57,226 bases of DNA. Origin: Candidatus Woesearchaeota archaeon (GTDB lineage: Archaea; Nanobdellota; Nanobdellia; Woesearchaeales; GW2011-AR9). The notes below the pieces were generated by a model. It was not told where the DNA came from and searched no databases. It was given only the letters and a program-made list of their open reading frames with translations. The position numbers were made by a program, and so were the translations under genes. The DNA is taken from assembly GCA_016181265.1 (NCBI GenBank), contig JACOZP010000009.1, forward strand, positions 1 through 57,226. The letters run 5' to 3'. The number at the start of each line of letters is the position of its first letter. Positions within the stretch are counted from its first letter, which is position 1. Shown piece after piece: positions 5,926 through 29,521 of the stretch.

Positions 5926-5966
5926 TCATAAACTTAATAAGAGGAACGCTATAACCTGTGTTACCC

Positions 5967-8582: not shown

Positions 8583-9835
8583 AATATTGCCAACGTTGCC
8601 TTTATCCTGTAAATCACCCACTGCGCTTGACTTTTGATGAAGAAGGGGTATGTAGTGGCTGTCGTGTTCACGAGGAGAAAGATAACGGAATTTTCTGGGA
8701 TACCCAGAGAAAGCGTTTGGGGGAAATCCTCTCTGCTTTTAAGAGTACCTCTCAGAGCCAATACGATTGTATCATTCCGGTAAGTGGTTCCCGTGATTCT
8801 TACTTTATCGTTCATTTAATCAAGAAGGTATTTGGAATGAAGCCACTTCTTGTTACCTATAACAAACAGTACAATACTGACATTGGGATTCGTAATCTCG
8901 CATATCTTAGAACTCTTTTTGATTGCGATCTTTTGACAATGACGGTTAGTCCGGAAACTGTAAAGAGAATAACTCGAGTTACTCTTCAGAAGATGGGCAG
9001 TATTTACTGGCATTGTCTTGCTGGTCAAACTGTTTTTCCTGTTCAAGTTGCTGTGCGTTTTAAGATCCCCCTCATCATTTGGGGGGCGCATCAAGGAGTT
9101 GATCAAGTAGGAATGTTCTCTCATCTTGACGAAGTGGAAATGACCAGGAAATATAGAAAAGAACATGACTTAATGGGATTCGAAGCTGAGGATTTAATTG
9201 ATGAGGCGATGGGGTTAACAGCGAGTGACTTGTCTCCCTACTTCTACCCTCATGATAAAGAAATCGAGATGGTCGGTGTTCGAGGAATTTATTTAAATAA
9301 TTATATCCGCTGGGATTCCAAGAGACAGCATGAAGAGATGATCAAACTCTATGGGTATGAAACAACCCCCCAGCAGAGAACATTTGATACCTATAATGAT
9401 GTTGATTGTTATACTTATTCGGATGTTCATGATTATATCAAATTTTTAAAGTATGGTTTTGGCAAGGCGACTGACCATGCCTGTCGGGAGATTAGATTGG
9501 GACGAATGAGTCGGGAAGAAGGGATAGAAGTAGTAAAACAGTACGAGGATAAAAAGCCAAAATATCTCCCCCTTTTTTTGGAATGGTTAGGGATCACAGA
9601 GAAAGGCTTTTATTATTTTATTAACCGTCATCGTGATCCTACAATCTGGCTGAAAATGGATGGCGGTCTCTGGCAGCTGAAAGACTCGATTATCAACTAT
9701 AAAGAAGATAGCAACGTTAATCAAGTTCGTTTACCTGTGAGAGAAAAATGTACATTTCAATGTACTCCGCTAAGAGCGACTTCGTTAGGGGATAAGTACA
9801 TTCTTATCGGGCGCGGTTTTGTTGATTCTAAATAA
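8579..9835 (+). CDS. N-acetyl sugar amidotransferase (WbuX/PseA family), copy 2
   Basis: YCQRCLYP, CSGC, YDCIIPVSGSRDS, KYGFGKATDHACREIR. Confidence 0.9.
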   Translation: MKYCQRCLYPVNHPLRLTFDEEGVCSGCRVHEEKDNGIFWDTQRKRLGEILSAFKSTSQSQYDCIIPVSGSRDSYFIVHLIKKVFGMKPLLVTYNKQYNTDIGIRNLAYLRTLFDCDLLTMTVSPETVKRITRVTLQKMGSIYWHCLAGQTVFPVQVAVRFKIPLIIWGAHQGVDQVGMFSHLDEVEMTRKYRKEHDLMGFEAEDLIDEAMGLTASDLSPYFYPHDKEIEMVGVRGIYLNNYIRWDSKRQHEEMIKLYGYETTPQQRTFDTYNDVDCYTYSDVHDYIKFLKYGFGKATDHACREIRLGRMSREEGIEVVKQYEDKKPKYLPLFLEWLGITEKGFYYFINRHRDPTIWLKMDGGLWQLKDSIINYKEDSNVNQVRLPVREKCTFQCTPLRATSLGDKYILIGRGFVDSK

Positions 9836-9841
9836 GAATGC

Positions 9842-10783
9842 TTAAATAATCTTTAGTGGGTCAGATAGTTTAGCACGATCTTCTTTACGGATAACTTTCC
9901 GCAGTTGAAGGTCACCAACACCAATGGCGTTGAACCTGCTTGCGTACATTATCTCGATGATTAAACGAGGCTTTTTGCGTGATCGTGAACCGTAGTGAAA
10001 ACATCTCGAGGCATTTATCATCAATGTTGATCCCGCTTTTCCCGTAAAGGGGATGGTCTCTTTAGGAGAGATATATTGATACATCTTCTCATCTGGAACG
10101 CGACCATCATAGTAGTTCATTTTCCGGGCAATCTCCGTTGATTTGTCTGCAGGGATAAGAGTAAACGGTCCAGCATCGTGATCAACATCGTGGACAGCAA
10201 TAAAAAATTGGAACCGGTTATGATCCCTTTTATCAAAATGAAATTTTTGTGAGTCTATGGTTTTATCATTAACATCAGTGTGCATTAAGAAGATGTTTCC
10301 TAATAAAGGCATTTCGCCAAGATAGTTAGCAACCATGCTGACAATATCTGGTCTGGTGGCAAATTCAATGAGCGGTTTTATCTCTTGAAAATCACAATAT
10401 CTTTTTTTCTCTCCATGTTTACCAATCAGAAATACTTTTGATTTGAAGTCTTGACTCTTCTGGTAATATGCTTCTACGTCATCTTTTCGCTGCTCAAATA
10501 CTTTTTGACAATGTGCGACGATGTCGCTAATGCCGGGGATATCTTCTGGTTGAAGAAAGAGGAACTGGCTCGTTTCTGGTAAGGAGAGGCGTGGGGGGTA
10601 CTGGCGCACGAGATCTTTTATTTTCCGTTTTCTGGTAATATATGCATACGGATGGGCAGTGATTTTTGCTCTTTTTATTATTTTCCAGCGATATTTAGCG
10701 GAAAAGCCCATCTTATTGAGAATGAAATTAAAGATCCGATCACTTCCTATTTTTCTTAGCCGAGCGATACTGTATTTATTCAT
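9842..10783 (-). CDS. 2-oxoglutarate/Fe(II) dioxygenase (phytanoyl-CoA dioxygenase-like)
   Basis: SQKFHFD (HxD), GPFTLIP, G.AG, FHYGSR...R motifs. Confidence 0.7.
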   Translation of the reverse strand: MNKYSIARLRKIGSDRIFNFILNKMGFSAKYRWKIIKRAKITAHPYAYITRKRKIKDLVRQYPPRLSLPETSQFLFLQPEDIPGISDIVAHCQKVFEQRKDDVEAYYQKSQDFKSKVFLIGKHGEKKRYCDFQEIKPLIEFATRPDIVSMVANYLGEMPLLGNIFLMHTDVNDKTIDSQKFHFDKRDHNRFQFFIAVHDVDHDAGPFTLIPADKSTEIARKMNYYDGRVPDEKMYQYISPKETIPFTGKAGSTLMINASRCFHYGSRSRKKPRLIIEIMYASRFNAIGVGDLQLRKVIRKEDRAKLSDPLKII

Positions 10784-14628: not shown

Positions 14629-15639
14629 ATGGTTAAGACGATCTTTTTTTTTAGCCAAGACCCTGGCAGTGCTAATGCCCTTTTTCCGGTGATAAAGAAG
14701 ATACAAGAAAGAAAATGGCTTTTTAATGTATTCGTTTTCGCCACAAGACAAAGCAAAGAAATTTTTCGAGGCGAAGGAATTGATTTCACTGATCTTGATG
14801 TTCATCATTTCTCTCCGGAGAATTTCCCTTCCCCTGCGTTGATTATAGTTGGAGCGAGCGCGGGGTTATGTCCCGAAAAGTCAGCGATCCTTTTCGGGAA
14901 AGAAAGAGGTATTCCTACGCTTTCTATACTTGATTTTTGGAGCAATTACTCCTCTAGATATAGTGAGAAAGAAAATGATTTTGCGTATCTTCCTGATTTC
15001 GTCTTGGTGATGGATCAAAATGCTAGGGACCAAATGATTGAGTTAGGATTTTCTCAGAAAAAAGTTATCGTGACAGGTAATCCTTTTTTTGATACTTTCA
15101 AGCTTGCTTCTGTTCAAAACGATACGCGAGACATCCTTTATGTTTCTCAGCCAGAAGTGAAAGAAGGAAAGTACTCTCCGAACTATACTCTTCTTAAAGA
15201 TATTTTGGACGTCAAAAAAGAATTGAACATTCCCTCTTCTTTGATCATACGTCCTCATCCGAAAGAGGATTGTAATGCATACAATGAGTATTGCACCAGC
15301 GATATCGTTGTCGATTGTACTTCTTCCATTCGCTCCTTGTTACAGAAATCATCAATAGTTATTGGAAGACATTCCATGGTCCTCTTCGAAGCTGTTTTTT
15401 CGGGGAAATTGGTTCTGAGCTATCAACCAGAAAATGAATCTGTTGATCGTTTAATTACCAATATGATGGGCCTCTCTTATTGTGCGAGATCGAAAGAAGA
15501 GTTAATAGTTCTCTTTAAGAAAGCAACAAGTGGTGAATTAAAAAAGAAGGAGATTGGTATAGTTCCTTATCTTAATGATGGGAAATGTACCGAACGGGTT
15601 GTTGCAGAGATCGAAAAAATGTTGGTTTTATTTACATAA
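14629..15639 (+). CDS. GT-B fold protein (possible nonulosonate transferase)
   Basis: DPGSAN, DFWSNY, VTGNPFFD, RPHPKE, SMVLFEA. Confidence 0.6.
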   Translation: MVKTIFFFSQDPGSANALFPVIKKIQERKWLFNVFVFATRQSKEIFRGEGIDFTDLDVHHFSPENFPSPALIIVGASAGLCPEKSAILFGKERGIPTLSILDFWSNYSSRYSEKENDFAYLPDFVLVMDQNARDQMIELGFSQKKVIVTGNPFFDTFKLASVQNDTRDILYVSQPEVKEGKYSPNYTLLKDILDVKKELNIPSSLIIRPHPKEDCNAYNEYCTSDIVVDCTSSIRSLLQKSSIVIGRHSMVLFEAVFSGKLVLSYQPENESVDRLITNMMGLSYCARSKEELIVLFKKATSGELKKKEIGIVPYLNDGKCTERVVAEIEKMLVLFT

Positions 15640-17164
15640 ATCTCTTTACGATTTTCTTAGCTTTACCAAGATCTATTCCAAATTTTCTTTCGATTGCTAA
15701 CAAGATCTGTTGATCTTCAACAGCGATGGCTCGTAAGAATAATGCGCTCAAAAAGTAGATTGAGATGAAAAATATGGAGAACAGCATAAACTTGACAAAA
15801 GATAGTGTCCCAGCGTATTGTAGATAAGAGTAGCCTAGTCCTAATGTAATGATCCCGCTGGCGATATATTTTAAGTAATATTTGCCTTGATAGTGAAATT
15901 TAAGGAGTCGCTTTGTTTCAAATAGGAAGATTACCTCGCGTAAGAAGATAGCTGTTGCCGTCGCGATAGCAGCTCCCATCAGACCATAGAGAGGAATTAG
16001 TACAATATTTAACGTAATGTTTAGCAAAGCTACAGAGATATTTATAGAGAGGATGAATTTTAATCGTTCGAATGTCTTGAGAACTTCTTCGGTCGGTCCG
16101 CTCATAACGCTGGCGAATGTTCCTCCCAGTAGAATTATCAAAGAAAGCGCAGCCGGTAGATATTCTTCTCCAAATAAGTATTTGATGATGGAGGAGGGAG
16201 AGAGTACGAGCAAAAGGAAGAATGGTAAGCTGGTGAAAAATATCCATCGCGCGACGACCGAGAAGAGAGCGGCAATTTCATCTACTTTTTCATTCGCTTT
16301 TAATTCGGCGATGATCGGGAAGAAAATTGAGGAGAATGTGGCGAGGAAGATGATAGCTGTTCCAGATAGAGAGAGGGCAATATTATAAATTCCTACTGCC
16401 GTGGCATCGGCAAGATAACCAAGCATGAATGTGTCTGTCCAACTAACAATATCAATAAAAACTGCTGAAAGAAAAAGCGGCAAGGAAAAACGCATAAGTT
16501 CTTTGTATTCTGGTATTGGCTTTACATTTGACTGGAAGAGAGGAGAGACACGATTTAAGAGAAAGAAAGCGATGATCAGCGCGAGGAGCGCTGAGACTAA
16601 AAAGGTAATAGAAATGGAAAGGACAGAACCTTCAATAAGGATTATGACTCCTACGAGAAATAAAGATATTGACTCTTTGCCAAAAGTGTTTGAATAAATG
16701 TTATATTCCGGCTTCTTAAATGCAGTAAACGCTTTACCAATTAATTTGAGCATTGTAAACGCAGGAATGCTTAACACCATGATTAGGAGAATCCAGCGAA
16801 GTTTTTGGTTATGAAAGACTTGTTCAGCAATAAACGGAGAGAAACTGACTAAGATAATGACGATGATGCTTGAAATAATTCCGGACGTTTTTAGGGCAGC
16901 GATGAGTGTTCCTTTAACTCGCTCTTTATCTCCAAGGCCGTTATAATGCGCGATAAACTTTACAATGCCATTATTTAATCCGACAGTGGCGAGCAGCGAA
17001 GAGATGTTAACTACCATTAGTCCTAAAGAGAAAAGACCAAAATCCTCTGGTCCAAGATAACGAGAGACAAGAAGTTTATAACAAAAACGGAAGATGTATA
17101 GTACGAAAGCCCCTAAGAAGATTATCCCTGCCCCTCTTGCTACTTTGCTAATTCCACTATCCAC
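15632..17164 (-). CDS. Oligosaccharide flippase (Wzx / MOP superfamily)
   Basis: About 12-14 hydrophobic segments; RYLGPEDFG, TDTFMLG..VGIY, LNIVLIPLYGLMGAAIAT. Confidence 0.92.
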   Translation of the reverse strand: MDSGISKVARGAGIIFLGAFVLYIFRFCYKLLVSRYLGPEDFGLFSLGLMVVNISSLLATVGLNNGIVKFIAHYNGLGDKERVKGTLIAALKTSGIISSIIVIILVSFSPFIAEQVFHNQKLRWILLIMVLSIPAFTMLKLIGKAFTAFKKPEYNIYSNTFGKESISLFLVGVIILIEGSVLSISITFLVSALLALIIAFFLLNRVSPLFQSNVKPIPEYKELMRFSLPLFLSAVFIDIVSWTDTFMLGYLADATAVGIYNIALSLSGTAIIFLATFSSIFFPIIAELKANEKVDEIAALFSVVARWIFFTSLPFFLLLVLSPSSIIKYLFGEEYLPAALSLIILLGGTFASVMSGPTEEVLKTFERLKFILSINISVALLNITLNIVLIPLYGLMGAAIATATAIFLREVIFLFETKRLLKFHYQGKYYLKYIASGIITLGLGYSYLQYAGTLSFVKFMLFSIFFISIYFLSALFLRAIAVEDQQILLAIERKFGIDLGKAKKIVKRFM

Positions 17165-17214: not shown

Positions 17215-18735
17215 ATGGCTACGATTATCCTTGGTTTGGATGGAATGAGTTTAGAGCTCCTTGAATTATGCCAGAAGGATATGCCTAATCTCCATGGACT
17301 CCTTTCGAAGAGTGCTTATACTAGTGCCAAGAGTGTATTTCCCATTCTGTCTGGCCCGGCGTGGACGAGTATCCTCACTGGCCAGGGTGTTGGGAAGCAT
17401 GGCTTTCTTAATTCTTTTTATTATGATGATAAGATGCAGGTTAGGATTACCCAACCGGAAGATGTATCAGAAGAGCATTTGTACGAAACTCTTTCCCGAT
17501 TTGGGAAGAGAGTATTTGTGATGGATGTTCCTTTCTCTACTTCTCGTAAGATTAAAGGAGATTTCCTTGATTCTTATTTTTCTACAAAGGAAAAACGTGA
17601 TCAGATTGTGCCTGCCGATTTAGTTACACGATTTCCTAGCATCAGGAATTATCTTAACTACAAGCCGAAGATCAAAAATATGAATAAAAATATTCGAAGT
17701 TTTATTGAGATCATCAATAACAATGGGGAGATCATTAAAGATATCATCAATTCTAAGAGCTATGATCTCATGTTTTTTCAGCTTAGTATTGTTGATTGGA
17801 TCCAGCATAAAGCGTTGATTGAGATAAAGCACCGACCACGAAGTAGGAAAGCGAGAGTTTCTGTTTTGGTGCTTAGAGAGTTGGATCATTTAATTGGATG
17901 GATAATTTCTCACCTTTGTCCCGAGGATCATTTCTTTGTGATTAGCGATCATGGTGGGACAGAATTGGAGGGTACATTCTTCATCAATAGCTGGCTGCGC
18001 AAGGAAGGTTTCTTGAGATTAATGGAACCGGTGAAAAGGAAGAACAATCTAGATGGCAGTAGCAGCTCCCGTCTCTCAAATTTTCTGGGAGAGACTATTG
18101 GCTTTCTCGCTAAGACTGCTAAGAGTAATAGGCTTCTCTTGAACATGGCAAAACCAATTCATCGAAAAATGAGATCCTATTTTGGAAAAGATTTCAGCAG
18201 TGAAGAAAAGATTAATTACCAAGAAAGCAAAGCGGTATGTCTAATTAAGAATATTCCTATCATCAAGATTCTGGAAAAGGATTTCGTTAAGAGGGAGCAG
18301 TTAAAGAGGGATATAATGGCCCGGCTTCGTGATGATTTAGCTTTTACCTCGTGGGATATTCTTGATTATTATCATTGTTGTGATGCGTCTTCAGAGATTA
18401 AGGGGAGGTTACGCCATTTTGGAGATATTGTTGTTGATTTAGAGAAACAGGAATTAGATGTATTTTTAGGTAATCGGATTTTCCTGAAAGGTAAAACAAT
18501 GTTCCATGATGAGAATTCCATCTTTATTGGCTATGGTCCAGAGATTAAAGTTGGCAAAATCAAGCAAGAAATCTCTATTATGGATATTTGTCCAACAGTC
18601 CTTTACTTTTTCGGTATTCCTATCCCAAACAGTAAAGACGGAAAAGTAATGGATATTTTTAGGAAAGAATTTATCCCTCCCTCTCTGGAGTCACCAAAGC
18701 CCGATGATGAAAACATCGAGATGATAGATTGGTGA
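17215..18735 (+). CDS. Alkaline phosphatase superfamily phosphodiesterase/phosphotransferase (COG3379-like)
   Basis: ILGLDG, P..SGPAWTSILTG, DWIQH, VISDHG, FH...IFIGYG, MDICPT; GAGGAG upstream of ATG 17215. Confidence 0.8.
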   Translation: MATIILGLDGMSLELLELCQKDMPNLHGLLSKSAYTSAKSVFPILSGPAWTSILTGQGVGKHGFLNSFYYDDKMQVRITQPEDVSEEHLYETLSRFGKRVFVMDVPFSTSRKIKGDFLDSYFSTKEKRDQIVPADLVTRFPSIRNYLNYKPKIKNMNKNIRSFIEIINNNGEIIKDIINSKSYDLMFFQLSIVDWIQHKALIEIKHRPRSRKARVSVLVLRELDHLIGWIISHLCPEDHFFVISDHGGTELEGTFFINSWLRKEGFLRLMEPVKRKNNLDGSSSSRLSNFLGETIGFLAKTAKSNRLLLNMAKPIHRKMRSYFGKDFSSEEKINYQESKAVCLIKNIPIIKILEKDFVKREQLKRDIMARLRDDLAFTSWDILDYYHCCDASSEIKGRLRHFGDIVVDLEKQELDVFLGNRIFLKGKTMFHDENSIFIGYGPEIKVGKIKQEISIMDICPTVLYFFGIPIPNSKDGKVMDIFRKEFIPPSLESPKPDDENIEMIDW

Positions 18736-18738
18736 TCA

Positions 18739-19374
18739 CTAGTGCAAAATCTCGTGCAGTCTCTCAGCGAGCTGGCATAATCTTCTTTCAGTAATCTTAG
18801 TTTTTCGAATTGGCTTCATCTTAACGAATTCTTCCTTTGTAAGAGGATCATAATGAATCTGCTTCTTGCCGAAAGTGCTATCAACGATAGAAGGTTGTCC
18901 CAGATCGCCGCGGAAAGGAAATAGTTTGAGATGGAGATGCTCTTTTTTCTCTTTCCACGTCGTAGTCTTACCGTACACTGCGACAGCGACACCTTCTTCT
19001 CGAGTAGATGAGATCGCTTTAAAGTTCGGCTGCTCCTCTGCCATGATTCTCGTCATTGCCGCATTCAGTTTGCTAAAAGCAAGACCATAATTCTTTGCAA
19101 GTTCAGGATTCCCTGCCAGCTGAGCAAAATGAGAAAAATGCCCTAAAGTCATCAGTTGTATTGTAAAATCTCGCTGATGATCCCCTCCTGTCTGGGGAGA
19201 TAATGTCGCAAACCAGCCGTTGACAATGGAATCGCCGATGCGAAAGATGACGATCGCATTATATTTTGTCCGCGTCCCGACGGGCAATATTGCTTCTTGG
19301 CACCAGACACAATCATCTTTGAGAGAAATGTCTTCTGCTAAGAGAATTTTTAATTGCTGTACAGTATTATGCAT
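18739..19374 (-). CDS. HIT-like protein with CxxC and HxHxK motif, paralog A
   Basis: DDCVWC, GHFSHFAQL, NYGLA, YGK, EHLHLKL; clearly similar to 19436-20050. Start at ATG 19374, as the longer ORF overlaps the divergent gene. Confidence 0.6.
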   Translation of the reverse strand: MHNTVQQLKILLAEDISLKDDCVWCQEAILPVGTRTKYNAIVIFRIGDSIVNGWFATLSPQTGGDHQRDFTIQLMTLGHFSHFAQLAGNPELAKNYGLAFSKLNAAMTRIMAEEQPNFKAISSTREEGVAVAVYGKTTTWKEKKEHLHLKLFPFRGDLGQPSIVDSTFGKKQIHYDPLTKEEFVKMKPIRKTKITERRLCQLAERLHEILH

Positions 19375-19402
19375 GAACCATCTAACATCAAAAATGCCGT
19401 AA

Positions 19403-19414
19403 CATTTATAAAAG
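19403..19414. promoter_or_regulatory. Palindromic TATA box in the divergent intergenic region
   Basis: TTTATAAA about 25-30 bp from both divergent start codons (19374 and 19436). Confidence 0.5.
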
Positions 19415-19435
19415 ATGTGAAAGGGGAATTTTTTC

Positions 19436-20050
19436 ATGACGCTTAGCGACTTGTTAGAACAAGCAACTACAACCAGTAGCGACTGTGTCTTTTGTGATTT
19501 TTCCACAGCCGATGTCGGAGACAAAGATAGCCGCGGTGCAGTAAAAGTATTCCAAACAGGTTCTAGTTTCGGGCAGGATTGGTATGGTATCCTCCAAACC
19601 GGTGTGATGTCTGATCCAATGAGTGGTTTTCGACTGTTACTTGTTCCTTTAGGTCATATTCAATCTTTTGCTGAAATCGCTAAAGATAGACGACTAGCAG
19701 AAAATTATGGAATTGCAACTGCACAGCTAAGCTTAGCGATGCAAAGAATCAGAGAAGAAGAATATGCTGGTACAGATACATTTACACCGGGTCAAATCGT
19801 CTATGGAAAATGTCATACTCCCGTAAATTCACAATCTCATCTTCATTTAAAACTGGATGAATTTAGCGGGGGGTTAGCACAAGCATTTCCTCCTGACGCG
19901 GGATGGATAAAAAAGCAGACCGGGCAGAGTGAAGGATCCATGGGAGAATTATATGTCAGAGCACGACCAGTCACAACAGTAGAATTAGAGTTGGAACGTA
20001 TCACCTCACTAGCCGATAGGTTGATTGACTACGCTAAGAGATCAATTTAA
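19436..20050 (+). CDS. HIT-like protein with CxxC and HxHxK motif, paralog B
   Basis: SDCVFC, LLVPLGHIQSFAEI, NYGIA, YGK, QSHLHLKL. Confidence 0.65.
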   Translation: MTLSDLLEQATTTSSDCVFCDFSTADVGDKDSRGAVKVFQTGSSFGQDWYGILQTGVMSDPMSGFRLLLVPLGHIQSFAEIAKDRRLAENYGIATAQLSLAMQRIREEEYAGTDTFTPGQIVYGKCHTPVNSQSHLHLKLDEFSGGLAQAFPPDAGWIKKQTGQSEGSMGELYVRARPVTTVELELERITSLADRLIDYAKRSI

Positions 20051-21119
20051 TATACTCTTTCTCTCTTCTCTCATCAAGATAAGCATCAAAGTAACCGACG
20101 ACCAAACGATAATACGCCTCCCCGGATTTCATCTGAACATGCTCCACTATCCCCGAAGCCCTTATCCTCTCGCCGGGGTATGCTAACATGCAATAATCAC
20201 GAGAATAAAACACTATTTTGGAGATCGGAATGAGAGCTACCTGAGGATCGTTCTCGATTATCGTTGAATTCTTGATATTATAACAACCCGGCCTTACCAC
20301 CGAGCTAAAGTTATCAACTACTTCTCCTTCAATCACTGCCTGGCCCACAGAGGTGTATTTCTCCTCTCCCCATTTGAACCAAACTTCTTCTTCTTTTTCC
20401 GCTGCGAAGATGACAAAAAGGCTACCATCAAAGTAACCTTCTGTTTTCCGGCGTTTCATCGAATGAAGGAATTCTTTTTCTTGGGAGATTGAGAAGCGAT
20501 TGCGCTTCTTATGAAACGCAAGCCACTCTTCATCCGTCTTCCAATGTAAGAACGGATGGGTTGCACTTTCGAGATAAGACATCAATTTCCAGAAATTCTC
20601 TTTGCCATACACGACAATATTAATATCTGAGATTGCAGGATTATAATGGCCCATCAAAGTAGAATATGTTATCCCGAAATCTTTGATCCTCAGGCCGCTT
20701 TGGAGGAGAAATTGAGAGAAAGAAAATACCCTGAAGAGATATTGATCCAAAGATGCGGGTGGCATGGACATCAGTTCTTTAAAGCCCCTTCGAGGGAAAT
20801 AGATTCGTTCAATCTTGTCGATCGGGATCGAAAAGAAAAGATGGTTCTTATCATGAAAAGGACTGGTATACACATACGAGGAATACGCTTCACGGAAACG
20901 AGCGATATAAGACTTCAGCTCTTCCTTCTCTGCCCACATATTCAGTCGATTCATCTTTCGTCCCATAATGAAACGATACGCAAGAGCACTGCTCTCGACA
21001 GTGGAGGTAGGAATATATTTTGGTTTAACTAAAATAGAAGAAGAAGGATGTTCATTACCATAGACTTGGCATTGCAGACCATCTTTAGTGGTGATAATTG
21101 ATGACTCATAAAAATGCAT
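20034..21119 (-). CDS. Archaeal Pol-beta-type nucleotidyltransferase-like protein (COG1665-like) with degenerate DxN motif
   Basis: GITYSTLMG...SDINIVVYG; C-terminal OB-like region (A.PGERIRASG.VE); paralog of the C-terminal third of 21145-24408; GGAGG upstream of ATG 21119. Confidence 0.7.
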   Translation of the reverse strand: MHFYESSIITTKDGLQCQVYGNEHPSSSILVKPKYIPTSTVESSALAYRFIMGRKMNRLNMWAEKEELKSYIARFREAYSSYVYTSPFHDKNHLFFSIPIDKIERIYFPRRGFKELMSMPPASLDQYLFRVFSFSQFLLQSGLRIKDFGITYSTLMGHYNPAISDINIVVYGKENFWKLMSYLESATHPFLHWKTDEEWLAFHKKRNRFSISQEKEFLHSMKRRKTEGYFDGSLFVIFAAEKEEEVWFKWGEEKYTSVGQAVIEGEVVDNFSSVVRPGCYNIKNSTIIENDPQVALIPISKIVFYSRDYCMLAYPGERIRASGIVEHVQMKSGEAYYRLVVGYFDAYLDERREKEYIKLIS

Positions 21120-21144
21120 TTCTTCAAGCCTCCAGTCACAACAT

Positions 21145-24100
21145 TCAATCGAGTAATGCTTTAAGGTATTCTTTCTCACCTTGTTCATTGGTATACGTAT
21201 TCATGTAACCGATAACTAATTGATAGAACTCACGCCCTTTCGGCGTCGTCACCTTTTCCAGCAAACCGCAGGCTTCTACTCTTTCCCTTTCTTTTGCCTG
21301 CAAAGCAAAAGGCCGCGACCAAAATACAATGCGTTCTATAGGAACTTCCTGATAACCTTCCAGAATTCTGGATTGGATAATTTCATAATAGCCCGGCCTG
21401 ACGTGAGAATAACGACAATCCTTCACGACACCCTGCATAACGACTGTAGCCAAAGGCTCATGCTTATCTTCCCAATCATACCACTCGGAAGTTCCCATCT
21501 CAACAACAAAGATTGAAAAGACATTTCCATCAAAAAGACCGTCATCACGTTTTCGCACCATGTTATGGACATATTCTCCTTCCGTAAACACTTTTGACAC
21601 GACTCGGTCCTTATAATAGCGAGCCCAATCCTCTCTCGACTTCCATTTTAAGAGTGGGTGCTGTACCGTCTCCATGTGTTTCAAGACCCGCCAGCCATTT
21701 TCAATACCAAAGATCAAAATATCAATGTCTGACTTTCCTGGAGTATAATTTCCCAACAACGTAGAATGGCTTATTCCCAGATCACTGACAGAAACTCCAC
21801 TCTGTAAGATAAGATTAATGATCCCTCGTGTCGCTTTTAGGTAAGGATCTAAATCTGCATCCGGAACTTTCAGGAATTGGCATAACCCTGCTCGAGGATC
21901 GTGAACTGTCAACACGTCTGTCTCCGGCACGGCAAAGAACCACTGTTGATGATTTTTATCAGAGAGAAGCAAGTGAGGGAGATTTCGTTTCAGAACAGCA
22001 AGATTCTCTCTCCCACTCTCTTTATCATTAAAGAGATTAAAGCGAAAAACACTTTTCTGAAAGAGAAACCTCTTCTTCAGTTTCCGAAACGAGTCTCCGT
22101 CTTGTAGCAGATCTTCAGGGATGTATTTTGGCTTGACAATCACCCGTCCAGAGGGATGATGAGTAGCGTAGACTTTACATTGGATGCCCTCTTTAGTAGT
22201 AATTAATGATGATTCCGGGTAGCGAGGATAATCAGCATCAGGAGATCTTCTAGGATGAACAACTTCCATCTGTGCAGAAAGATTATAGTTACTTTCCAAT
22301 TCCTTCACTCTCTCATTAAAAACTGCAAGGCACAATTGGTTGTAATCTGTTCTACCAGTAGTAAGATTATCAACAAAACTGCGGACTTTCAGTAACTTTC
22401 CTTGAAGACGGATTTTTCTCTCTTGCTCAGGAAGTTCTAGCACATATTCCAGATCCATCAGATCAGAAAGCCGATCGATGATCTCCGTGTTCACCACTTC
22501 ACGAGGTGCGCCGATTAACCGCGAGATATGCTCGCGATAACGCGGTGGAAGACTAGAGGGGTGAGGATCACGTGAAAGAGACTTGTTTTCTGTCAGAAGA
22601 GAAAGATGCTGGATAACCTGAGGGTACTGTCGCAAAAAAGGTTGTTGAGATAGAGTTCTGACCGTGACCGGAGTATCTTCGAGAACATCATGCAATGCAG
22701 TAGTAAGTATAGAAGAAACGTCTCTCTCACCGCATGCGTAAAGCAACCTGACAAGATAGATTGAGTGAAAAACTAGAGGAGTGATACCATCATTCCTTTT
22801 CTGATCACCAAATGCCGTTACGAGAAAATGAAAGACCTCTTTAAAGAGATCTTGCTTTTCGCCAAAAGAATGTGCAACTTCATCCGCAGCCCGACTAACA
22901 TCTTCCTGGAACTGCTCTTTAACCCGAACATAATCCGGACGTACTTCTTTTAAGAGAGGATCTGACCCGAAAGCAATACGTGATTTTTCATCTAAGACAA
23001 ATTGAGAGATACTCGAATTCTTCTCTTCTCTAAAGCAATTGATCGGCCCAACAACAATATCTTTAGGAACGGCAACATTCAAAGCAGTTAATATTGTTGG
23101 TGCGACCTGACGAATATCCACATCATTCATCAGTCCTCGTCTCTTAACTTCTGGTCCGCTAATGATAAAGAGCCCTTGTCGTGAATGCCCAGCACTATCT
23201 GCGCCAATCGCCGTGTGCCAAGAATAGAGATCCTCCGGTACAAGATCAGGGTTAGAGGCCCAACGTAAATCGTCAAAATAGATCGTTAAATCAGGACACT
23301 CAGGATGAGATACATTTTGGTATATTTCTTCCGCAGTGTAAACTTTCGTTTGGAGTTGATTCCCCTTATCATCAGGAATCTTTGTAATCTTCTCTGCAAT
23401 TTCATCGCGAACATCTCTCCATTTGCTGCCTAACTTCTCTTTATTGATACTGATTCTACCGTTGTATGCTCCTCCACCCCAAGCCAAGCTTCGGTCCATA
23501 TCTACAAGTTCCATCTTAAAACGCGTGCTCTTGCTAAGATCAACACCCTCTTTCAAGACGAGGTAGCCCTCTTTAATGAGCCAGTTGTTAATGTTGATCT
23601 TGCCCTCCTGTTTGATCATCCCATGATCAGATGCAACGATAACAGTAGTATCGTGTGGTAGAAGTTGTAGTACTTCTCCCAGTTTCTGATCGATATAAAC
23701 GTAAAAATCTCTAATTGCATTCGCATGGGGGGAATCCACGATGAAGCGACGATGCCCCTCATCAAAATGACGCCAAAGCATATGTTGAAGTCGATCAGTT
23801 CCTAGCATGACTGCCATGCAGAAATCCCATTCTTCATTGACGATGAGATCTTTCAAGAGAGAAACCTGCATATTAGTCATCTCTTTTGCCCGGCTGACCA
23901 GCTCACCAGGATCAAGGCTTTTATGGCTGCCCAACCCCACCGCAACATCGAAGAAACCTTCTGGATTACCTAATGCTTTAATTTTATCTTTGAGGCTTTC
24001 TGGGTAAGCGCAGTTACTTTCAACTCCCGGTGTCATGAAATCGGTAACGATACACCCTGGAAACATCGTGACTGGATAGGAAAGAGGGACATAAAGAGCA

Positions 24101-24408
24101 ATGCTCTTTCGTTTCTCATCGCCGATAATATCCCAAACCAATCTCGCTTTATTGTTCTTAGAACTGACAAGACGATATTCTCCCTGCTCATCCTTATAGG
24201 TGTAGTTAAAGACACCGATCTCACTTGGATCTTTTCCAGAGATCATGGCATTCCACGCCACAATCGTAGAGGGAGGAATAGTGCTATTCATCCGAGCGTA
24301 CGTGCCATGTTCCATTAGTTTCTGGATATTAGGCAAAAGATTGTTCCAACGCTCAAAAACAAGATCTGGAACGCCGCCATCAATACCAAATAAGAAGACT
24401 TTTCCCAT
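21145..24408 (-). CDS. Three-domain fusion: AlkP-superfamily phosphodiesterase + RelA/SpoT(Mesh1)-type HD domain + COG1665-like nucleotidyltransferase
   Basis: aa 1-460: GIDG, PPSTIVAW, DRLQH, ASDHG, GHS..G, VAPTIL. aa ~520-660: QKRNDG.TP..FH, LHDVLED, DRLSD. aa ~730-1087: GISHSTLLG..KSDIDILIFG. Confidence 0.75.
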   Translation of the reverse strand: MGKVFLFGIDGGVPDLVFERWNNLLPNIQKLMEHGTYARMNSTIPPSTIVAWNAMISGKDPSEIGVFNYTYKDEQGEYRLVSSKNNKARLVWDIIGDEKRKSIALYVPLSYPVTMFPGCIVTDFMTPGVESNCAYPESLKDKIKALGNPEGFFDVAVGLGSHKSLDPGELVSRAKEMTNMQVSLLKDLIVNEEWDFCMAVMLGTDRLQHMLWRHFDEGHRRFIVDSPHANAIRDFYVYIDQKLGEVLQLLPHDTTVIVASDHGMIKQEGKININNWLIKEGYLVLKEGVDLSKSTRFKMELVDMDRSLAWGGGAYNGRISINKEKLGSKWRDVRDEIAEKITKIPDDKGNQLQTKVYTAEEIYQNVSHPECPDLTIYFDDLRWASNPDLVPEDLYSWHTAIGADSAGHSRQGLFIISGPEVKRRGLMNDVDIRQVAPTILTALNVAVPKDIVVGPINCFREEKNSSISQFVLDEKSRIAFGSDPLLKEVRPDYVRVKEQFQEDVSRAADEVAHSFGEKQDLFKEVFHFLVTAFGDQKRNDGITPLVFHSIYLVRLLYACGERDVSSILTTALHDVLEDTPVTVRTLSQQPFLRQYPQVIQHLSLLTENKSLSRDPHPSSLPPRYREHISRLIGAPREVVNTEIIDRLSDLMDLEYVLELPEQERKIRLQGKLLKVRSFVDNLTTGRTDYNQLCLAVFNERVKELESNYNLSAQMEVVHPRRSPDADYPRYPESSLITTKEGIQCKVYATHHPSGRVIVKPKYIPEDLLQDGDSFRKLKKRFLFQKSVFRFNLFNDKESGRENLAVLKRNLPHLLLSDKNHQQWFFAVPETDVLTVHDPRAGLCQFLKVPDADLDPYLKATRGIINLILQSGVSVSDLGISHSTLLGNYTPGKSDIDILIFGIENGWRVLKHMETVQHPLLKWKSREDWARYYKDRVVSKVFTEGEYVHNMVRKRDDGLFDGNVFSIFVVEMGTSEWYDWEDKHEPLATVVMQGVVKDCRYSHVRPGYYEIIQSRILEGYQEVPIERIVFWSRPFALQAKERERVEACGLLEKVTTPKGREFYQLVIGYMNTYTNEQGEKEYLKALLD

Positions 24409-24459
24409 TATGCTTGAAACCTTTTAGTTCTCATTTATTTTGTTTGGCTGTTATCTCCT

Positions 24460-24684
24460 CTAATCTAGATATCCTAACTCTGCCAACCTTTTCTTTACTT
24501 TTTCTTCGTTTTCTAGAGAGTTTTCTTTTGCTCTTTTTTCTTCTTCTCTGATTTTTCCCGCTATCTGACAGAGAACATCTTCTATGTATGCTGAAAGAGA
24601 TGGTATTCCTTTCTCCTGACTCCTCTTCAGAAGAAGTGCTATTATTTCTGAGGAAAGATCAATCCGTAAGGTCTCTTTTTCCAT
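24460..24684 (-). CDS. Small CopG/RHH-like protein with C-terminal EEKVKKRLAELGYL motif
   Basis: Beta-alpha-alpha pattern (LRIDLS..I...L...G..SLSAYIEDVL) plus the LGYL tail seen in small archaeal proteins encoded beside AlkP genes. Confidence 0.7.
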   Translation of the reverse strand: MEKETLRIDLSSEIIALLLKRSQEKGIPSLSAYIEDVLCQIAGKIREEEKRAKENSLENEEKVKKRLAELGYLD

Positions 24685-25082: not shown

Positions 25083-26552
25083 TTAGGTAGGAGTTCTATT
25101 CAAATATTGCTCCATTCCCTCAACTAATAACGAGATATTTGCTGGTTCTAATGAACGCATTTGACAATCTCCTGGTAAAGCTCCCGTACCTTGAAATGAA
25201 GCTTTATGTATTGCAGCAACGAATTTTAATGTTTTTGTTTTGTCTGTTTTTTGATCTAATTTCTCTTTTATAACTTGGGGCAATGTTTCAATTTCCTTGA
25301 TGTTCAGTACTTCGTCAAAAATGTTATAATAAATGTTACCAAAAGTAATTACGGGTTTTTGGAGAAGAATTGCTTCCCAGCCCGATGTTCCCGTAATTGT
25401 TAATACTAGTGAACTATTTTTGATCAGTTCGATGGAGTTAGCACGGGGCGAGATTAATCTAATATTTGGAAATTTCTTAATCCACTTGTGAAAATAACGG
25501 GGTCGGCTTGAATAACAGAAAGTGTGTTCTTTGACGTAGAGTTTATACCCACAGGGTAGACTCCGAGAAATGTTTTCGATCAACGCGAGCTGATTGACGT
25601 ACCATTTTCCGTAGAGCGAGGTTGATGCTTCAGGGTCTTTGTGTAAAGGGTAATAAACGTATCTCTCCCCACTTTCAGGCATATCAAAGATCCCACCCAT
25701 ATCTAATAATTTATCGGTAATTGGCCACAAGTACTGTCTTAGGTCGGGGAGTTGTTTTCGGTAGCGTAAGGTTTTTAGATGTCCCATATATTTCTTTATC
25801 TTTTGGGAAGCGCTTACTTTTACTTTCGCTGAATCATCTGGCTTACATGGATTTTCTCTAAAATGGTTGATAAAATTCTCCGCAATTTCTGTCTCTTCTT
25901 TTGTTAGATTTCTCCCTTTAATTTCCTGGTACTCTTTGACCAAAAGAGGCCATCGATCTTCAAAGTTATTGTTAAACGTGAATCGTTTTGGGACTCGTGC
26001 ATTTACAATATCGAGCTGCAAAATTCTGTTCTTTCGGAGTGTACTACAGATAATGACACTTGCAAAACTAGAAGTTCCGAGTGAGACAAAATAATCAAAT
26101 TTTGTACTTTCGATAATTTTTTCCATTTTTCTGACGAAGTATTCAACCCAATAGAGAACTTTCTCTGGCGTGAATTTCAGCCTTTCTTTTCTTCGAGGAG
26201 CAGTAATTTGCCAGATGTCCCAACTTTTGAATCCGTATTTTTCTTCTGCTGCTCTGACGAATTCAATATCAGGGGAGAATGATGTTTCGCTGTTATTACT
26301 TATTGATTCAATGGGGAGATAATCATTAAAATCAATAAAGAAGATTTTTTCTGTCGAGATTCCTTCGTTTTTATAGAGAAGATCTTTTCCTTTTCCAATA
26401 ACTAAAAAAGATGCTTCTACACCATGTTTTTTTTCTAATTCTTTGGCGAGAGCTAGCATTAATTGGTCTCGTCCGGTAGACCCACCAAGAAAGAGGACCC
26501 TCTTTCCCGATAAATGTTTATTTTCACTCATGTTTTTTCTGATGGTTGACAT
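25083..26552 (-). CDS. Capsule polysaccharide biosynthesis (KpsS-like GT-B) protein
   Basis: YYPLHKDPEAS, LYVKEH, TITGTSGWEAILLQKPVITFG. Confidence 0.75.
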   Translation of the reverse strand: MSTIRKNMSENKHLSGKRVLFLGGSTGRDQLMLALAKELEKKHGVEASFLVIGKGKDLLYKNEGISTEKIFFIDFNDYLPIESISNNSETSFSPDIEFVRAAEEKYGFKSWDIWQITAPRRKERLKFTPEKVLYWVEYFVRKMEKIIESTKFDYFVSLGTSSFASVIICSTLRKNRILQLDIVNARVPKRFTFNNNFEDRWPLLVKEYQEIKGRNLTKEETEIAENFINHFRENPCKPDDSAKVKVSASQKIKKYMGHLKTLRYRKQLPDLRQYLWPITDKLLDMGGIFDMPESGERYVYYPLHKDPEASTSLYGKWYVNQLALIENISRSLPCGYKLYVKEHTFCYSSRPRYFHKWIKKFPNIRLISPRANSIELIKNSSLVLTITGTSGWEAILLQKPVITFGNIYYNIFDEVLNIKEIETLPQVIKEKLDQKTDKTKTLKFVAAIHKASFQGTGALPGDCQMRSLEPANISLLVEGMEQYLNRTPT

Positions 26553-29352: not shown

Positions 29353-29448
29353 GCACCGGTGGTATAATGGCTAGTATCTCAGCCTTCCATTTTCGGATGA
29401 AGGTTTAGAAGAGAGCTGATGATCCGGGTTCGAATCCCGGCCGGTGCA
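29353..29448 (+). tRNA. tRNA-Gly(TCC) with 24-nt intron at 37/38 (29390-29413)
   Basis: Acceptor GCACCGG/CCGGTGC, anticodon stem TCAGC/GCTGA, loop CT-TCC-A, T-loop TTCGAAT; CTTC/GAAG helix between 3-nt bulges. Confidence 0.93.
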
Positions 29449-29521
29449 CTCATTCTTTAACTAGGTCAAAAATATTTTCAACAGCGTTAAATTTATAAAT
29501 AACAAATTTATACTCCCCAAT

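Follow-up and report, generated by a model that had tools for sequence, protein, structure and literature searches.

A conserved module of nucleotidyltransferase, HIT-fold and phosphatase genes in DPANN glycan loci: a possible replacement for ATP sulfurylase

Why should a nonulosonate glycan locus of an archaeon contain an array of paired HIT-like, nucleotidyltransferase (NTase) and AlkP proteins, together with an HD domain and a small RHH-like protein? This question is raised by six adjacent genes (17215-24684) in the window, a stretch of 57,226 nucleotides from a Candidatus Woesearchaeota genome (G000) that is 89% complete. We found that the six-gene set is one conserved module, for which no description was found in the literature searched. 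Since it sits where related genomes hold the standard sulfate-activating enzyme, it is probably an undescribed route to activated sulfate for glycans.

Gene inventory of the locus

The genes, the domains of the fused protein E and the two flanks are as follows.

15632..17164, minus strand: MOP/Wzx-type flippase, flank of the module (PF01943, E 1.2e-32)
17215..18735, plus strand: A, AP2, second and divergent AlkP-superfamily protein, 512 aa (PF01663, E 1.9e-24)
18739..19374, minus strand: B, HITb, module-type HIT-fold protein, 211 aa, counted from M51 of a 261-aa ORF
19436..20050, plus strand: C, HITc, second HIT paralogue, found in few lineages, 204 aa
20034..21119, minus strand: D, N1, Pol-beta-type NTase paralogue with C-terminal OB fold, 361 aa
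21145..24408, minus strand: E, fusion of AP1, HD and N2, 1087 aa
22999..24408, minus strand: AP1 domain of E (residues 1-470), AlkP/NPP-type (PF01663 at residues 4-384, E 1.1e-35)
22234..22998, minus strand: HD domain of E (residues 471-725), Rel/SpoT/MESH1-like 3'-(pyro)phosphohydrolase domain
21145..22233, minus strand: N2 domain of E (residues 726-1087), NTase paralogue with intact SDxD
24460..24684, minus strand: F, small RHH-like protein, 74 aa, translationally adjacent to AP1
25083..26552, minus strand: KpsS/Capsule_synth-like transferase, flank of the module (PF05159, E 3.6e-7)

The sequence-only reading of this region had described the gene set, its glycan surroundings and its paralog pairs, and all of these are real. 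NeuB, CTP_transf_3, PglD-like, DegT, GATase/HisF-like and Epimerase_2-like genes confirm the nonulosonate locus, and the flippase and transferase named as flanks were matched by Pfam profiles. The ORF of AP2 opens at TTG 17197, and its first ATG is at 17215. The similarity within the pairs far exceeds what chance would give: identity is 32% between B and C (E 5e-32), 37% between D and residues 730-1085 of E (E 2e-86), and 19% between A and residues 6-462 of E (E 3e-16).

No match to B, C or D was found in Pfam or NCBIfam (Pfam HIT: none at E <= 0.01), and a PDB sequence search with HITb, profile included, gave no match; the folds of these three proteins are taken from predicted models. The HITb model (pLDDT 94.5) is most similar to the Ap4A phosphorylase Rv2613c (3ano_A, Z 13.2, rmsd 3.3, 130 residues aligned), and 18 chains match with a Z of at least 8. 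Both HIT proteins carry the predicted HxHxK motif as HLHLK, as well as an N-terminal CxxC; C22, C25, H79, H146, H148 and K150 are invariant in HITb. HIT-superfamily enzymes such as GalT, yeast Apa1/2 and the Thiobacillus denitrificans adenylylsulfate:phosphate adenylyltransferase (ADP-sulfurylase) swap the leaving group on AMP via a His-AMP intermediate, and some interconvert APS and ADP or Ap4A. HITb is a candidate adenylyl-transfer enzyme of this kind.

The two NTases differ in their metal motif, which reads SDxD in every upstream copy read (N2; SDIDILI in the window) and is degenerate, SDxN, in every downstream copy read (N1). N2 is presumed to be the catalytic subunit and N1 is probably its non-catalytic or modified partner. 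In the N1 model (pLDDT 96), the NTase core resembles GLD-2, TUT7 and cGLR (Z 7.1-7.6), and the OB fold, recognized at Z 7-8, is most like ssDNA/RNA-binding and tRNA-anticodon-binding domains.

In AP1, residues D10, D205, H209, D261, H262 and H408 are invariant and T48 is nearly so, and the CxPxR formylglycine motif is absent. The HD domain matches TIGR00691 over residues of about 520-675, below the cut-off of that model (E 4e-5 and 3.6e-6), and PDB entry 7oiw (E 1.2e-4), with MESH1 and a (p)ppApp hydrolase among the weaker matches. Protein F has no Pfam match and shows a strand-helix-helix pattern by eye; its C-terminal RLxxLGYL(D) tail is the most conserved part, with R66, L67, L70, G71 and Y72 invariant.

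Conservation of the module in DPANN genomes

The window and 49 other DPANN genomes yielded 50 loci for comparison, in addition to a phylum sample of 151 genomes; the genomes are MAGs whose completeness is partial or not established. The order N2(DxD)-N1(DxN)-HIT-PHP recurs in the 49 other genomes, with an RHH-AlkP pair upstream of this core and/or APS kinase linked to it. N2 and N1 lie in tandem in 46 of the 50 loci, HITb follows 3' of N1 in 40 of the 43 that extend far enough downstream, and homologues of N1 across DPANN are 57-92% identical. Natural fusions join AP1 and N2, AP1, HD and N2, HD and N2, N1 and HIT (four loci, and the database proteins P0037, P0044 and P0107), and PHP and CysC. 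The HIT-like, NTase and AlkP genes are thus linked in one conserved and often fused unit. Its spread is patchy (7 of the 151 sampled genomes), and 22 of 50 loci have a flippase gene no more than 10 kb away.

Some features of the window do not carry over to the module in general. The HD domain is no regular part of the module; in 35 of 42 loci its slot is held by a PHP phosphatase. One or the other follows in 40 of these 42 loci, never both: none of the five loci with HD has PHP, and none of the 35 with PHP has HD. Likewise, two HIT genes are present in the window, but HITc occurs in only 3 of 50 loci (WIN, L008 and L009), and the HIT genes closest to it, those of G049 and G100, stand alone among unrelated neighbours. 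In 16 of 50 loci the module ends, on its far side, with a second AlkP gene, and an RHH-like gene lies upstream of AP1 in 18 of the 39 with at least 2.5 kb of upstream sequence. AP1 itself is always directly 5' of N2 or fused to it, and its orthologues beside N2 are 54-66% identical.

Relation to sulfate activation and rival explanations

ATP sulfurylase (Sat, PF01747) was found in none of the 49 module genomes, nor in any of the six from the phylum sample that carry the module, which include G000 and G003; as the other four are apparently among the 49, this amounts to 0 of 51 distinct genomes. The search was sensitive: it did detect PF01747 in 10 DPANN genomes other than these and in 5 of the 14 controls. 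A full-length APS kinase (CysC, E <= 1e-39) is present in 23 of the 49 module genomes, mostly in the same operon as the module, and scores 170 bits on TIGR00455 against a cut-off of 138.7; 19 of these 23 genomes lack a strong PF01507/CysD match. Checking for co-occurrence and mutual exclusion, as had been suggested, showed the module to be complementary to Sat: among CysC-positive genomes, Sat occurs in none of the 23 that carry the module and in 9 of the 14 that lack it (Fisher p 1.6e-5, with no correction for phylogeny). G160 and G167 apparently have CysD and CysN-CysC in addition to the module, so the replacement is not strictly exclusive.

The same complementarity is seen in gene order. 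In DPANN relatives without the module, PK::PUA_2::Sat or PK::PUA_2::Sat::CysC occupies the same slot, with CysC or CysC-CysQ and PF00685 sulfotransferases, and a PK-like gene lies 5' of N2-N1-HIT-PHP-CysC in L034, L035, L040 and L051. The clustering of this AlkP type and the small RHH protein with sat/cysC, named in the sequence-only reading, was borne out by L063, whose order RHH-AP1-PK::Sat::CysC places RHH-AP1 as before N2 in the window, and by the AP1 orthologues (E < 1e-110) in the phylum sample: all nine genomes that hold one have either the module (five) or Sat and CysC (four). All loci that extend far enough upstream have AP1 or CysC, with a negative association between the two (22/6/17/5, p 1.5e-4, shared ancestry ignored). 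PF00685 sulfotransferases adjoin the module or CysC in five loci, and PF00884 sulfatase-family genes do so in eight.

We therefore consider it somewhat more probable than its negation (about 0.55) that the module replaces ATP sulfurylase without being homologous to it and supplies APS/PAPS for surface-glycan sulfation; the substituent on the glycan is most probably sulfate. The sequence-only reading had already proposed that the genes make an activated nucleotide donor by an alternative route and transfer its substituent to the glycan. Gene linkage and context, from comparative genomics, fit this proposal, and the chemistry is inferred. N2, with its intact DxD, would pair with the degenerate N1, which is often fused to HIT, and together with the GalT/Ap4A-phosphorylase-like HIT protein the pair would transfer AMP from ATP to sulfate, giving APS. 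Either the NTase would use sulfate directly as nucleophile, or a His-AMP intermediate would form on HIT, as in ADP-sulfurylase or in Ap4A phosphorylase run in reverse; the division of labour between N2, N1 and HIT is guesswork. The unfavourable equilibrium would be pulled by a product-consuming partner, APS kinase (yielding PAPS) in one variant and AP1 in the other, to which the window, with AP1 fused to HD and N2, would belong. The nucleotide by-product would be cleared by a 3'-phosphonucleotide phosphohydrolase: PHP in most loci, the SpoT-like HD in the window, CysQ in one locus. In G000, no APS kinase was found, and the genome search gave no PF00685 or PF13469 match and no recognizable sulfotransferase; AP1 and/or AP2 are thus candidates for using APS, which they would phosphorylate or whose sulfate they would pass to the glycan.

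Several observations count against the sulfate reading. G000 and 21 other AP1-type genomes are without APS kinase, yet keep a pAp-phosphatase-type gene, which a simple PAPS scheme fails to explain; module-type PHP orthologues track the module, not CysC. A PF00685 match is present in only 10 of 50 module genomes, and distant NTase relatives are found in H4MPT/methanofuran gene clusters, where phosphodiester-linked groups are built, and not sulfur genes. The module might activate another oxyanion or phospho-substituent (for example phosphoramidate, phosphate, phosphonate or a selenate derivative) as a PAPS-like 3'-phospho-nucleotide donor, with transfer by AlkP via phospho-Thr. Thr-nucleophile AlkP/NPP enzymes typically handle phosphoryl or nucleotidyl groups, in keeping with T48 and the missing CxPxR in AP1, and CysC-family kinases can also act on other nucleotide anhydrides, as Cj1415/Cj1416 do in C. 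jejuni MeOPN synthesis. We regard this as unlikely, however, given that the module takes the place of a bona fide PUA_2 and ATP sulfurylase protein within parallel gene arrays, that AP1 co-occurs with true Sat and CysC, that sulfotransferase and sulfatase-family genes are recurring neighbours, and that the kinase scores above the adenylyl-sulfate-kinase equivalog cut-off.

A nucleic-acid substrate would suit the NTase, as the OB fold resembles nucleic-acid-binding domains, and this also argues against sulfate. In a set for RNA or nucleotide end processing or salvage in nucleotide-poor DPANN, NTase and OB fold would add to RNA/tRNA ends, HIT would remove 5'-adenylates like aprataxin, PHP would be an RNase AM-type exonuclease, AlkP an end phosphatase and the CysC-like proteins kinases. 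N1 does join a TUTase/GLD-2-like core to an SSB/AspRS-type OB fold, the module PHP matches RNase RNM (E 8e-57) almost as well as pAp phosphatase, and aprataxin is among the structural matches of HIT, albeit low (Z 6.1-6.5). Such a function is improbable for a module that is patchily distributed, is always part of a glycan locus, among flippase and glycosyltransferase genes, complements Sat in its occurrence and has ties to APS kinase, to sulfotransferases and to the AP1 unit. Conserved neighbours include neither an RNA ligase or cyclase nor a tRNA gene, and the wider NTase family adjoins small-molecule cofactor genes. The sequence-only reading had also considered a nucleotide-signal circuit controlling glycan synthesis. 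Here, as a second-messenger or defence system, the NTases would make a signal nucleotide that HD, PHP and HIT break down, with RHH as the regulator of glycan genes. NTase, SpoT-like HD hydrolase and small RHH protein do recall synthetase/hydrolase/regulator triads, the sporadic spread is typical of accessory systems, and the fold matches of the NTase include a cGAS-like receptor (Z 7.1). This proposal found no support and is very improbable: none of the six proteins has a PADLOC match, even at E 0.1, conserved effector or sensor domains are missing, HD is confined to 5 of 50 loci, and the genes that regularly accompany the module are metabolic (APS kinase, pAp-phosphatase family, PK-like, sulfotransferases).

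Comparison with known systems

HITb shares with the HIT-superfamily nucleotidyl phosphorylases and transferases the fold and two conserved His in the HxHx motif, and its CxxC and further His resemble the zinc site of GalT. It differs in the third motif position, which is Lys (HxHxK) and not His or Gln, and in its constant coupling, sometimes by fusion, to an NTase paralogue. AP1 belongs to the NPP branch of the alkaline-phosphatase superfamily according to Pfam (PF01663), and conserves the ligands of its two metals as well as the position of the Thr nucleophile; unlike this branch, it is cytoplasmic, has about 460 aa and no close solved relative, is paired with the small RHH-like protein, is fused to NTase and HD domains, and is tied in its occurrence to sulfate-activation genes.

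The module PHP is similar to pAp phosphatases of the PHP/COG0613 type, such as Cv1693, and of the CysQ type. Its best family is the 3',5'-nucleoside bisphosphate (pAp) phosphatase NF041577 (E 1.3e-57), in L012 and L041 it forms one protein with CysC, and CysQ takes its place in L052; the window HD resembles SpoT/MESH1-type enzymes that cut 3'-(pyro)phosphate off nucleotides. In contrast to true pAp phosphatases, the module PHP stays below the equivalog cut-off (195 versus 400 bits) with RNase RNM close behind, and its gene still comes after the NTase-HIT core where a genome has no APS kinase.

In its logic, the module is reminiscent of the Campylobacter jejuni O-methyl-phosphoramidate pathway (Cj1415-Cj1418), in which a small oxyanion is joined to a nucleotide as an anhydride by an NTase, a CysC homologue adds the 3'-phosphate, and the group is then moved to a surface glycan. 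That pathway uses another NTase family and has no HIT, AlkP or PHP partner, whereas the module of DPANN takes the place of a true ATP sulfurylase. With Sat (PF01747 and PUA_2) or CysDN, the module has no relationship in sequence or fold: it combines a pair of Pol-beta-type NTase paralogues with a HIT-fold protein and a phosphohydrolase, lacks the GTPase of CysN, and in half of the module genomes has an AlkP-type protein in place of CysC. Nevertheless, its inferred role is the same as that of Sat or CysDN followed by CysC, its phyletic spread is complementary to that of Sat, and it occupies the same genomic slot, 5' of or beside CysC, beside a PK-like gene and behind RHH-AP1, in glycan loci with sulfotransferases.

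Module genes and their glycan surroundings

The six module genes A to F are flanked by a flippase gene on one side and a KpsS/Capsule_synth-like gene on the other:

15632-17164, minus strand: MOP flippase, one flank of the module
17197/17215-18735, plus strand: A, AlkP family protein AP2 (PF01663, E 1.9e-24)
18739-19374, minus strand: B, HIT-like protein HITb, 211 aa from M51
19436-20050, plus strand: C, HIT-like protein HITc, 204 aa
20034-21119, minus strand: D, putative nucleotidyltransferase (NTase) N1, 361 aa
21145-24408, minus strand: E, 1087 aa; AlkP domain AP1 (PF01663, E 1.1e-35), then an HD-like middle, then a D-like C-terminus (NTase N2)
24460-24684, minus strand: F, small RHH-like protein, 74 aa
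25083-26552, minus strand: KpsS/Capsule_synth-like gene, other flank of the module

The sequence-only reading had described paralogue pairs inside a nonulosonate glycan locus, and both descriptions are borne out. The pairs are genuine at 32% identity for B and C (E 5e-32), 37% for D and the C-terminus of E (E 2e-86) and 19% for A and the N-terminus of E (E 3e-16). Around the module lie genes for NeuB, a CMP-sugar-type cytidylyltransferase, a PglD-like acetyltransferase, DegT and a GATase/HisF-like pair; an Epimerase_2 match was weak and sub-threshold. The NeuB-family nonulosonate synthase (1758-3338, plus strand; PF03102 at residues 212-452) is fused at its N-terminus to a domain that resembles 2H-phosphoesterases / 2'-5' RNA ligases (PF13563, E 2e-7), an unusual combination. 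Five sizeable ORFs of the glycan locus (805-1716, 4783-5925, 5958-7085, 8579-9835 and 9842-10783) gave no Pfam match at E ≤ 1e-3, and the missing glycan-modifying transferase could be one of them. Elsewhere in the window, ARAGORN reports a tRNA-Lys(UUU) at 29353-29449 (plus strand) whose length of 97 nt suggests an intron. The genome (G000; 1.0 Mb, 23 contigs, 89% complete) also carries, away from the module, a CysQ/inositol-monophosphatase-like gene that adjoins a small PHP-domain ORF (G000:C4:22547-25002); it is 26-29% identical to the CysQ part of locus L005.

Histidine-triad proteins carry HxHxHxx in the Hint/Fhit branch and HxHxQ in the GalT branch. B and C lack the classic triad, since they retain the first two histidines and have a lysine in the third place (HLHLK), and neither matched PF01230, the Pfam HIT profile, at E ≤ 0.01. 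The HIT alpha/beta fold is nevertheless present in a model of B (pLDDT 94.5): the best VIA-align hit was the Ap4A phosphorylase Rv2613c (3ano_A, Z 13.2, rmsd 3.3 Å over 130 residues), the next 17 chains with Z ≥ 8 were HIT, Fhit or GalT-like without exception, and Foldseek returned a probability of 0.99, though with an E-value of just 9e-3. Across 37 HIT sequences, residues C22, C25, H79, H146, H148 and K150 never vary. The resulting pattern is CxxC...H...HxHxK, which we take to resemble the zinc site and nucleophile histidine of GalT. HITc was rejected as a module-specific component and is peripheral, being found in 3 of the 50 loci, with its closest relatives in two genomes (G049, G100) standing alone beside unrelated genes.

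Neither Pfam nor NCBIfam profiles matched B, C or D, and no NTase profile of Pfam matched D or E. The family-wide NTase consensus is GxTGS...SDIDL. N2 carries the [DE]x[DE] metal motif, with SDxD in each upstream copy read, and N1 lacks it, with SDxN in each downstream copy read; by these motifs the two look like an active and a degenerate partner, which may form an N2:N1 heterodimer. The AlphaFold model of D (pLDDT 96) has a beta-rich N-terminal domain, a core (residues 122-240) and a C-terminal OB fold. The core aligns with GLD-2, TUT7, cGLR/cGAS-like proteins, Pol X and MEAT1 at Z 6.4-7.6, a range open to chance arrangements, and Foldseek detected the OB fold alone. PDB sequence searches with D, C, the AP1 domain and the NTase-family and HIT-family profiles yielded nothing useful.

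A and the N-terminus of E belong to PF01663 (87.4 and 124.3 bits; cut-off 23). In 22 AP1 sequences D10, D205, H209, D261, H262 and H408 are invariant and T48 nearly so. The middle domain of E (residues 471-725) resembles the HD hydrolase of Rel/SpoT/MESH1: its LHDVLEDT aligns to LHDVIEDT of Rel (PDB 7oiw, E 1.2e-4), with a TIGR00691 score of 25.6 bits that is well under the cut-off of 499 and no Pfam HD match in E at E ≤ 0.01. F shows a strand-helix-helix pattern by eye and a conserved C-terminal RLxxLGYL(D), and matched no RHH profile of Pfam or NCBIfam. Complex prediction for F with the AP1 domain scored 0.52 (best of three controls 0.32), with at least 77% of contacts shared between runs and partner pLDDT of at least 80. 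This value earns the mark "weak support". In calibration the mark went to 58 of 80 solved complexes and to 2 of 110 mismatched pairs; with a score of at most 0.60 it went to just 7 of the 80 and to both mismatches, and the result was counted neither way. PADLOC-DB 2.0 defence models gave no families for any of the six proteins at E ≤ 0.1.

Linkage of the module genes across loci

The locus set consisted of 49 loci from a scan with one genome per species, plus the window (n = 50), in which ORFs were called, clustered and labelled. The counts include two unpublished genomes, G161 (locus L018) and G179 (L036), and the claims are independent of both. Tandem NTase genes were found in 46 of the 50 loci. 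HITb follows N1 in 40 of the 43 loci whose downstream sequence extends for 800 nt or more, and all three exceptions have a ProRS-like gene after N1. A PHP protein (~290 aa; 35 loci) or a SpoT-like HD (five loci, the window among these) follows in 40 of the 42 loci that have 2 kb or more of downstream sequence, never together; of the two remaining loci, L036 and L052, the latter has CysQ genes instead. Upstream, AP1 precedes N2 in 25 of the 39 loci with at least 2.5 kb, and an RHH gene is present in 18 of these 39. The parts are also fused: AP1+N2 in L025, L044 and L047, AP1+HD+N2 in the window, L008 and L031, HD+N2 in L015, N1+HIT in L016, L044, L047 and L049, and PHP+CysC in L012 and L041. 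The gene-neighbourhood comparison that the sequence-only reading had proposed thus upholds the linkage of the module genes, by conserved order and by fusion.

The ProRS-like gene (436 aa, tRNA-synt_2b + ProRS-C_1; L011:11085-12395, also L045 and L056) lies between N1 and PHP in the usual HITb place; we considered it as a functional HIT substitute and regard it as an insertion. A membrane protein of ~97 aa, by eye with three transmembrane helices and PQ-loop/SemiSWEET-like, directly adjoins N2 or AP1 in L020 (2296-2589), L022, L038 and L044 and could be a pathway-linked transporter.

Homologues of D that are 57-92% identical occur in Woese-, Nano-, Aenigm- and Iainarchaeota, the named ones being Woesearchaeota and other DPANN; those of 536-580 aa are D fused with a B-type HIT. 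Identities of 57-70% had suggested a universal DPANN housekeeping gene, an explanation we rejected because the NTase is sporadic, with 7 carriers among the 151 genomes of our phylum sample. The archaeal family comprises 492 clusters (50% identity) at E ≤ 1e-3, its proteins are named "hypothetical" or "predicted nucleotidyltransferase" throughout, and no description of its function or of the module itself was found in the full-text literature searched. PF01909 matched one distant relative (L067, E 1.2e-5) and is carried by 28-49% of the members of Atlas clusters neighbouring the NTase.

The distant relatives are 37-51% identical to the database protein P0163 and 24-30% to D. On metagenome contigs (L071-L150) they have an intact DxD in all cases and two to four paralogues in 48 of 80 loci, and their neighbours encode Ftr, Fwd-like (formylmethanofuran-dehydrogenase-like) subunits, Mch, CitG, a UbiX-like flavoprotein, a RimK-type ATP-grasp protein and DUF6513+PterinBD proteins. 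They seem to represent an enzyme, so far uncharacterised, from gene clusters for H4MPT/methanofuran-type cofactors, and nucleotidyl transfer to a phosphate oxyanion would be plausible chemistry for them. The NTase family is used in small-molecule pathways, as this cofactor context shows.

Complementarity with ATP sulfurylase

The commonest additional partner of the module is an APS kinase (CysC; PF01583, E 2.4e-44), which scores 170 bits against TIGR00455 (cut-off 138.7). ATP sulfurylase (Sat, PF01747) was found in none of the 49 module genomes. The phylum sample has six genomes with the module, including G000 and G003, and all of these lack it as well; the same search was positive for 10 other DPANN genomes and 5 of the 14 controls. 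The mutual exclusion with sat that the sequence-only reading had put forward for checking is observed among these genomes. Of the 49 module genomes, 23 encode a full-length APS kinase, and 19 of these 23 are also without a strong PF01507 (CysD/CysH) match; G160 and G167 seemingly carry CysD plus CysN-CysC. Among CysC-positive genomes, Sat occurs in 0 of 23 with the module vs 9 of 14 without it (Fisher p 1.6e-5, an overstated value since kin are non-independent).

Relatives that have Sat encode it within a fusion protein, either PK::PUA_2::Sat or PK::PUA_2::Sat::CysC. The fusion genes lie in glycan loci alongside PF00685 sulfotransferases and CysC or CysC-CysQ, and in parallel gene arrays the module holds the place that Sat has in these relatives. 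In L034, L035, L040 and L051, N2-N1-HIT-PHP-CysC is preceded by a MarR+PK-like gene, and the Sat locus L063 has an operon RHH-AP1-PK::Sat::CysC, a mirror of RHH-AP1...N2 in the window. This operon also contains the clustering of the AlkP type and the RHH protein with sat and cysC that the sequence-only reading had named as frequent in archaea. Two more genes of L063 are a second, divergent AlkP gene and one that resembles sulfatase-family cluster c14 (21%, BLAST alone). AP1 orthologues (E < 1e-110) were found in 9 of the 151 sampled genomes, five with the module and four with Sat and CysC (p 1.3e-10).

The fusion of canonical Sat to a full pyruvate-kinase barrel in DPANN relatives (L057:130-2394; L063:9110-11851, minus strand; also L058, L059, L061, L062 and L064) measures ~750 aa as PK::PUA_2::Sat and ~915 aa as PK::PUA_2::Sat::CysC. 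We know of no description of it; it points to a coupling between sulfate activation and ATP regeneration.

By AP1 and genomic CysC, the 50 loci divide into 22 with AP1 and without CysC, 17 with CysC and without AP1, 6 with both and 5 with neither, a negative association (p 1.5e-4); all five of the last type end within 500 nt upstream. The window is an AP1-type locus. In G000 (89% complete), PF01583 gave nothing beyond a 22.9-bit P-loop match, and PF01747, PF01507, PF00685 and PF13469 gave no match, nor did two custom sulfotransferase HMMs at E ≤ 1; the PF01747 and PF01507 profiles likewise matched none of the six module proteins. A complete PAPS pathway, i.e. APS kinase plus a PAPS-dependent sulfotransferase, was thus not found in G000. 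The PF03567 profile had no match even among control genomes and is hence uninformative on G000; PMC11625862 describes the putative sulfotransferases of PF03567 type in Woese- and Pacearchaeota as uncharacterised. A close relative with the same AP1+HD+N2 architecture (L008 in G151) is also without Sat and CysC. AP1-type genomes without CysC retain a pAp-phosphatase-type gene, and three of them (G156, G168, G174) have PF00685-type matches, which suggests a 3'-phosphorylated donor there.

Proposed function

The analysis shows that the module genes are linked and fused, that they are complementary with Sat, and that they associate with glycan loci, CysC, AP1 and a pAp-phosphatase-type gene. As an explanation, we favor a sulfate-activation/PAPS-type pathway that serves glycan sulfation and has unrelated proteins in place of its key enzyme, and put its probability at roughly 0.55; the assignment of any single step is considerably less probable. 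N2:N1 and HIT would convert ATP and sulfate to APS, consumption of the product by CysC or AP1 would pull the reaction, and a 3'-phosphonucleotide would be cleared by PHP, HD or CysQ. PF00685 sulfotransferases in five module loci and PF00884 sulfatase-family genes in eight speak for such a pathway, and in L052, where CysQ takes the place of PHP, a CysC-CysQ fusion and a sulfotransferase flank N2-N1-HIT. Several observations count against sulfate: only 10 of the 50 module genomes have a PF00685 match, the C-terminal OB fold of N1 (Z 7-8) is closest to nucleic-acid-binding OB folds, and the context of the distant NTase relatives is cofactor, not sulfur. PHP bears on the question in both directions. 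In favor of sulfate, its best-scoring model is NF041577, 3',5'-nucleoside bisphosphate phosphatase (195 bits, E 1.3e-57); the score is below the equivalog cut-off of 400 and nearly equalled by RNase RNM (192.6 bits), so that its putative membership in NF041577-type phosphatases holds at the family level only. The idea that the module-type PHP is a general follower of CysC was dropped, as its orthologues track the module, not Sat/CysC genomes, and this too counts against sulfate.

AP1 is a candidate APS kinase analogue, as it is the sole gene regularly present where CysC is absent; alternatively, it may be a transferase that depends on APS. That AP1 is fused with N2 and HD suggests action on a soluble nucleotide rather than on the glycan, and AP2 (gene A), which adjoins the flippase, would be the better candidate for a glycan-directed enzyme. 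A bolder version, which we consider rather unlikely, is a third non-homologous sulfate-activating class, with N2:N1 and a Zn-bearing HxHxK HIT making APS and AP1 in place of APS kinase. AP1 might then phosphorylate the 3'-OH of APS with PPi from the first step, which would pull both products of an unfavourable reaction together, or might move sulfate from APS to the glycan via a covalent Thr intermediate. Either route, if true, would be sulfation chemistry without a described counterpart, and the pattern of AlkP for CysC makes a concrete, testable prediction, namely that an enzyme of the AlkP fold acts on APS.

The reaction at issue, sulfate activation, is central. If true, a third solution from unrelated folds would assign a role to a large NTase family of archaea that is so far uncharacterised, account for the orphan APS kinases of DPANN genomes, point to sulfated surface glycans on DPANN episymbionts and provide new enzymes for APS/PAPS production in vitro. 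To our knowledge, there are only two enzyme solutions to sulfate activation, Sat and CysDN. The module is proposed to work like Sat but not to belong to the Sat family, and its HIT motif has a lysine in the third position, where Hint has histidine and GalT has glutamine.
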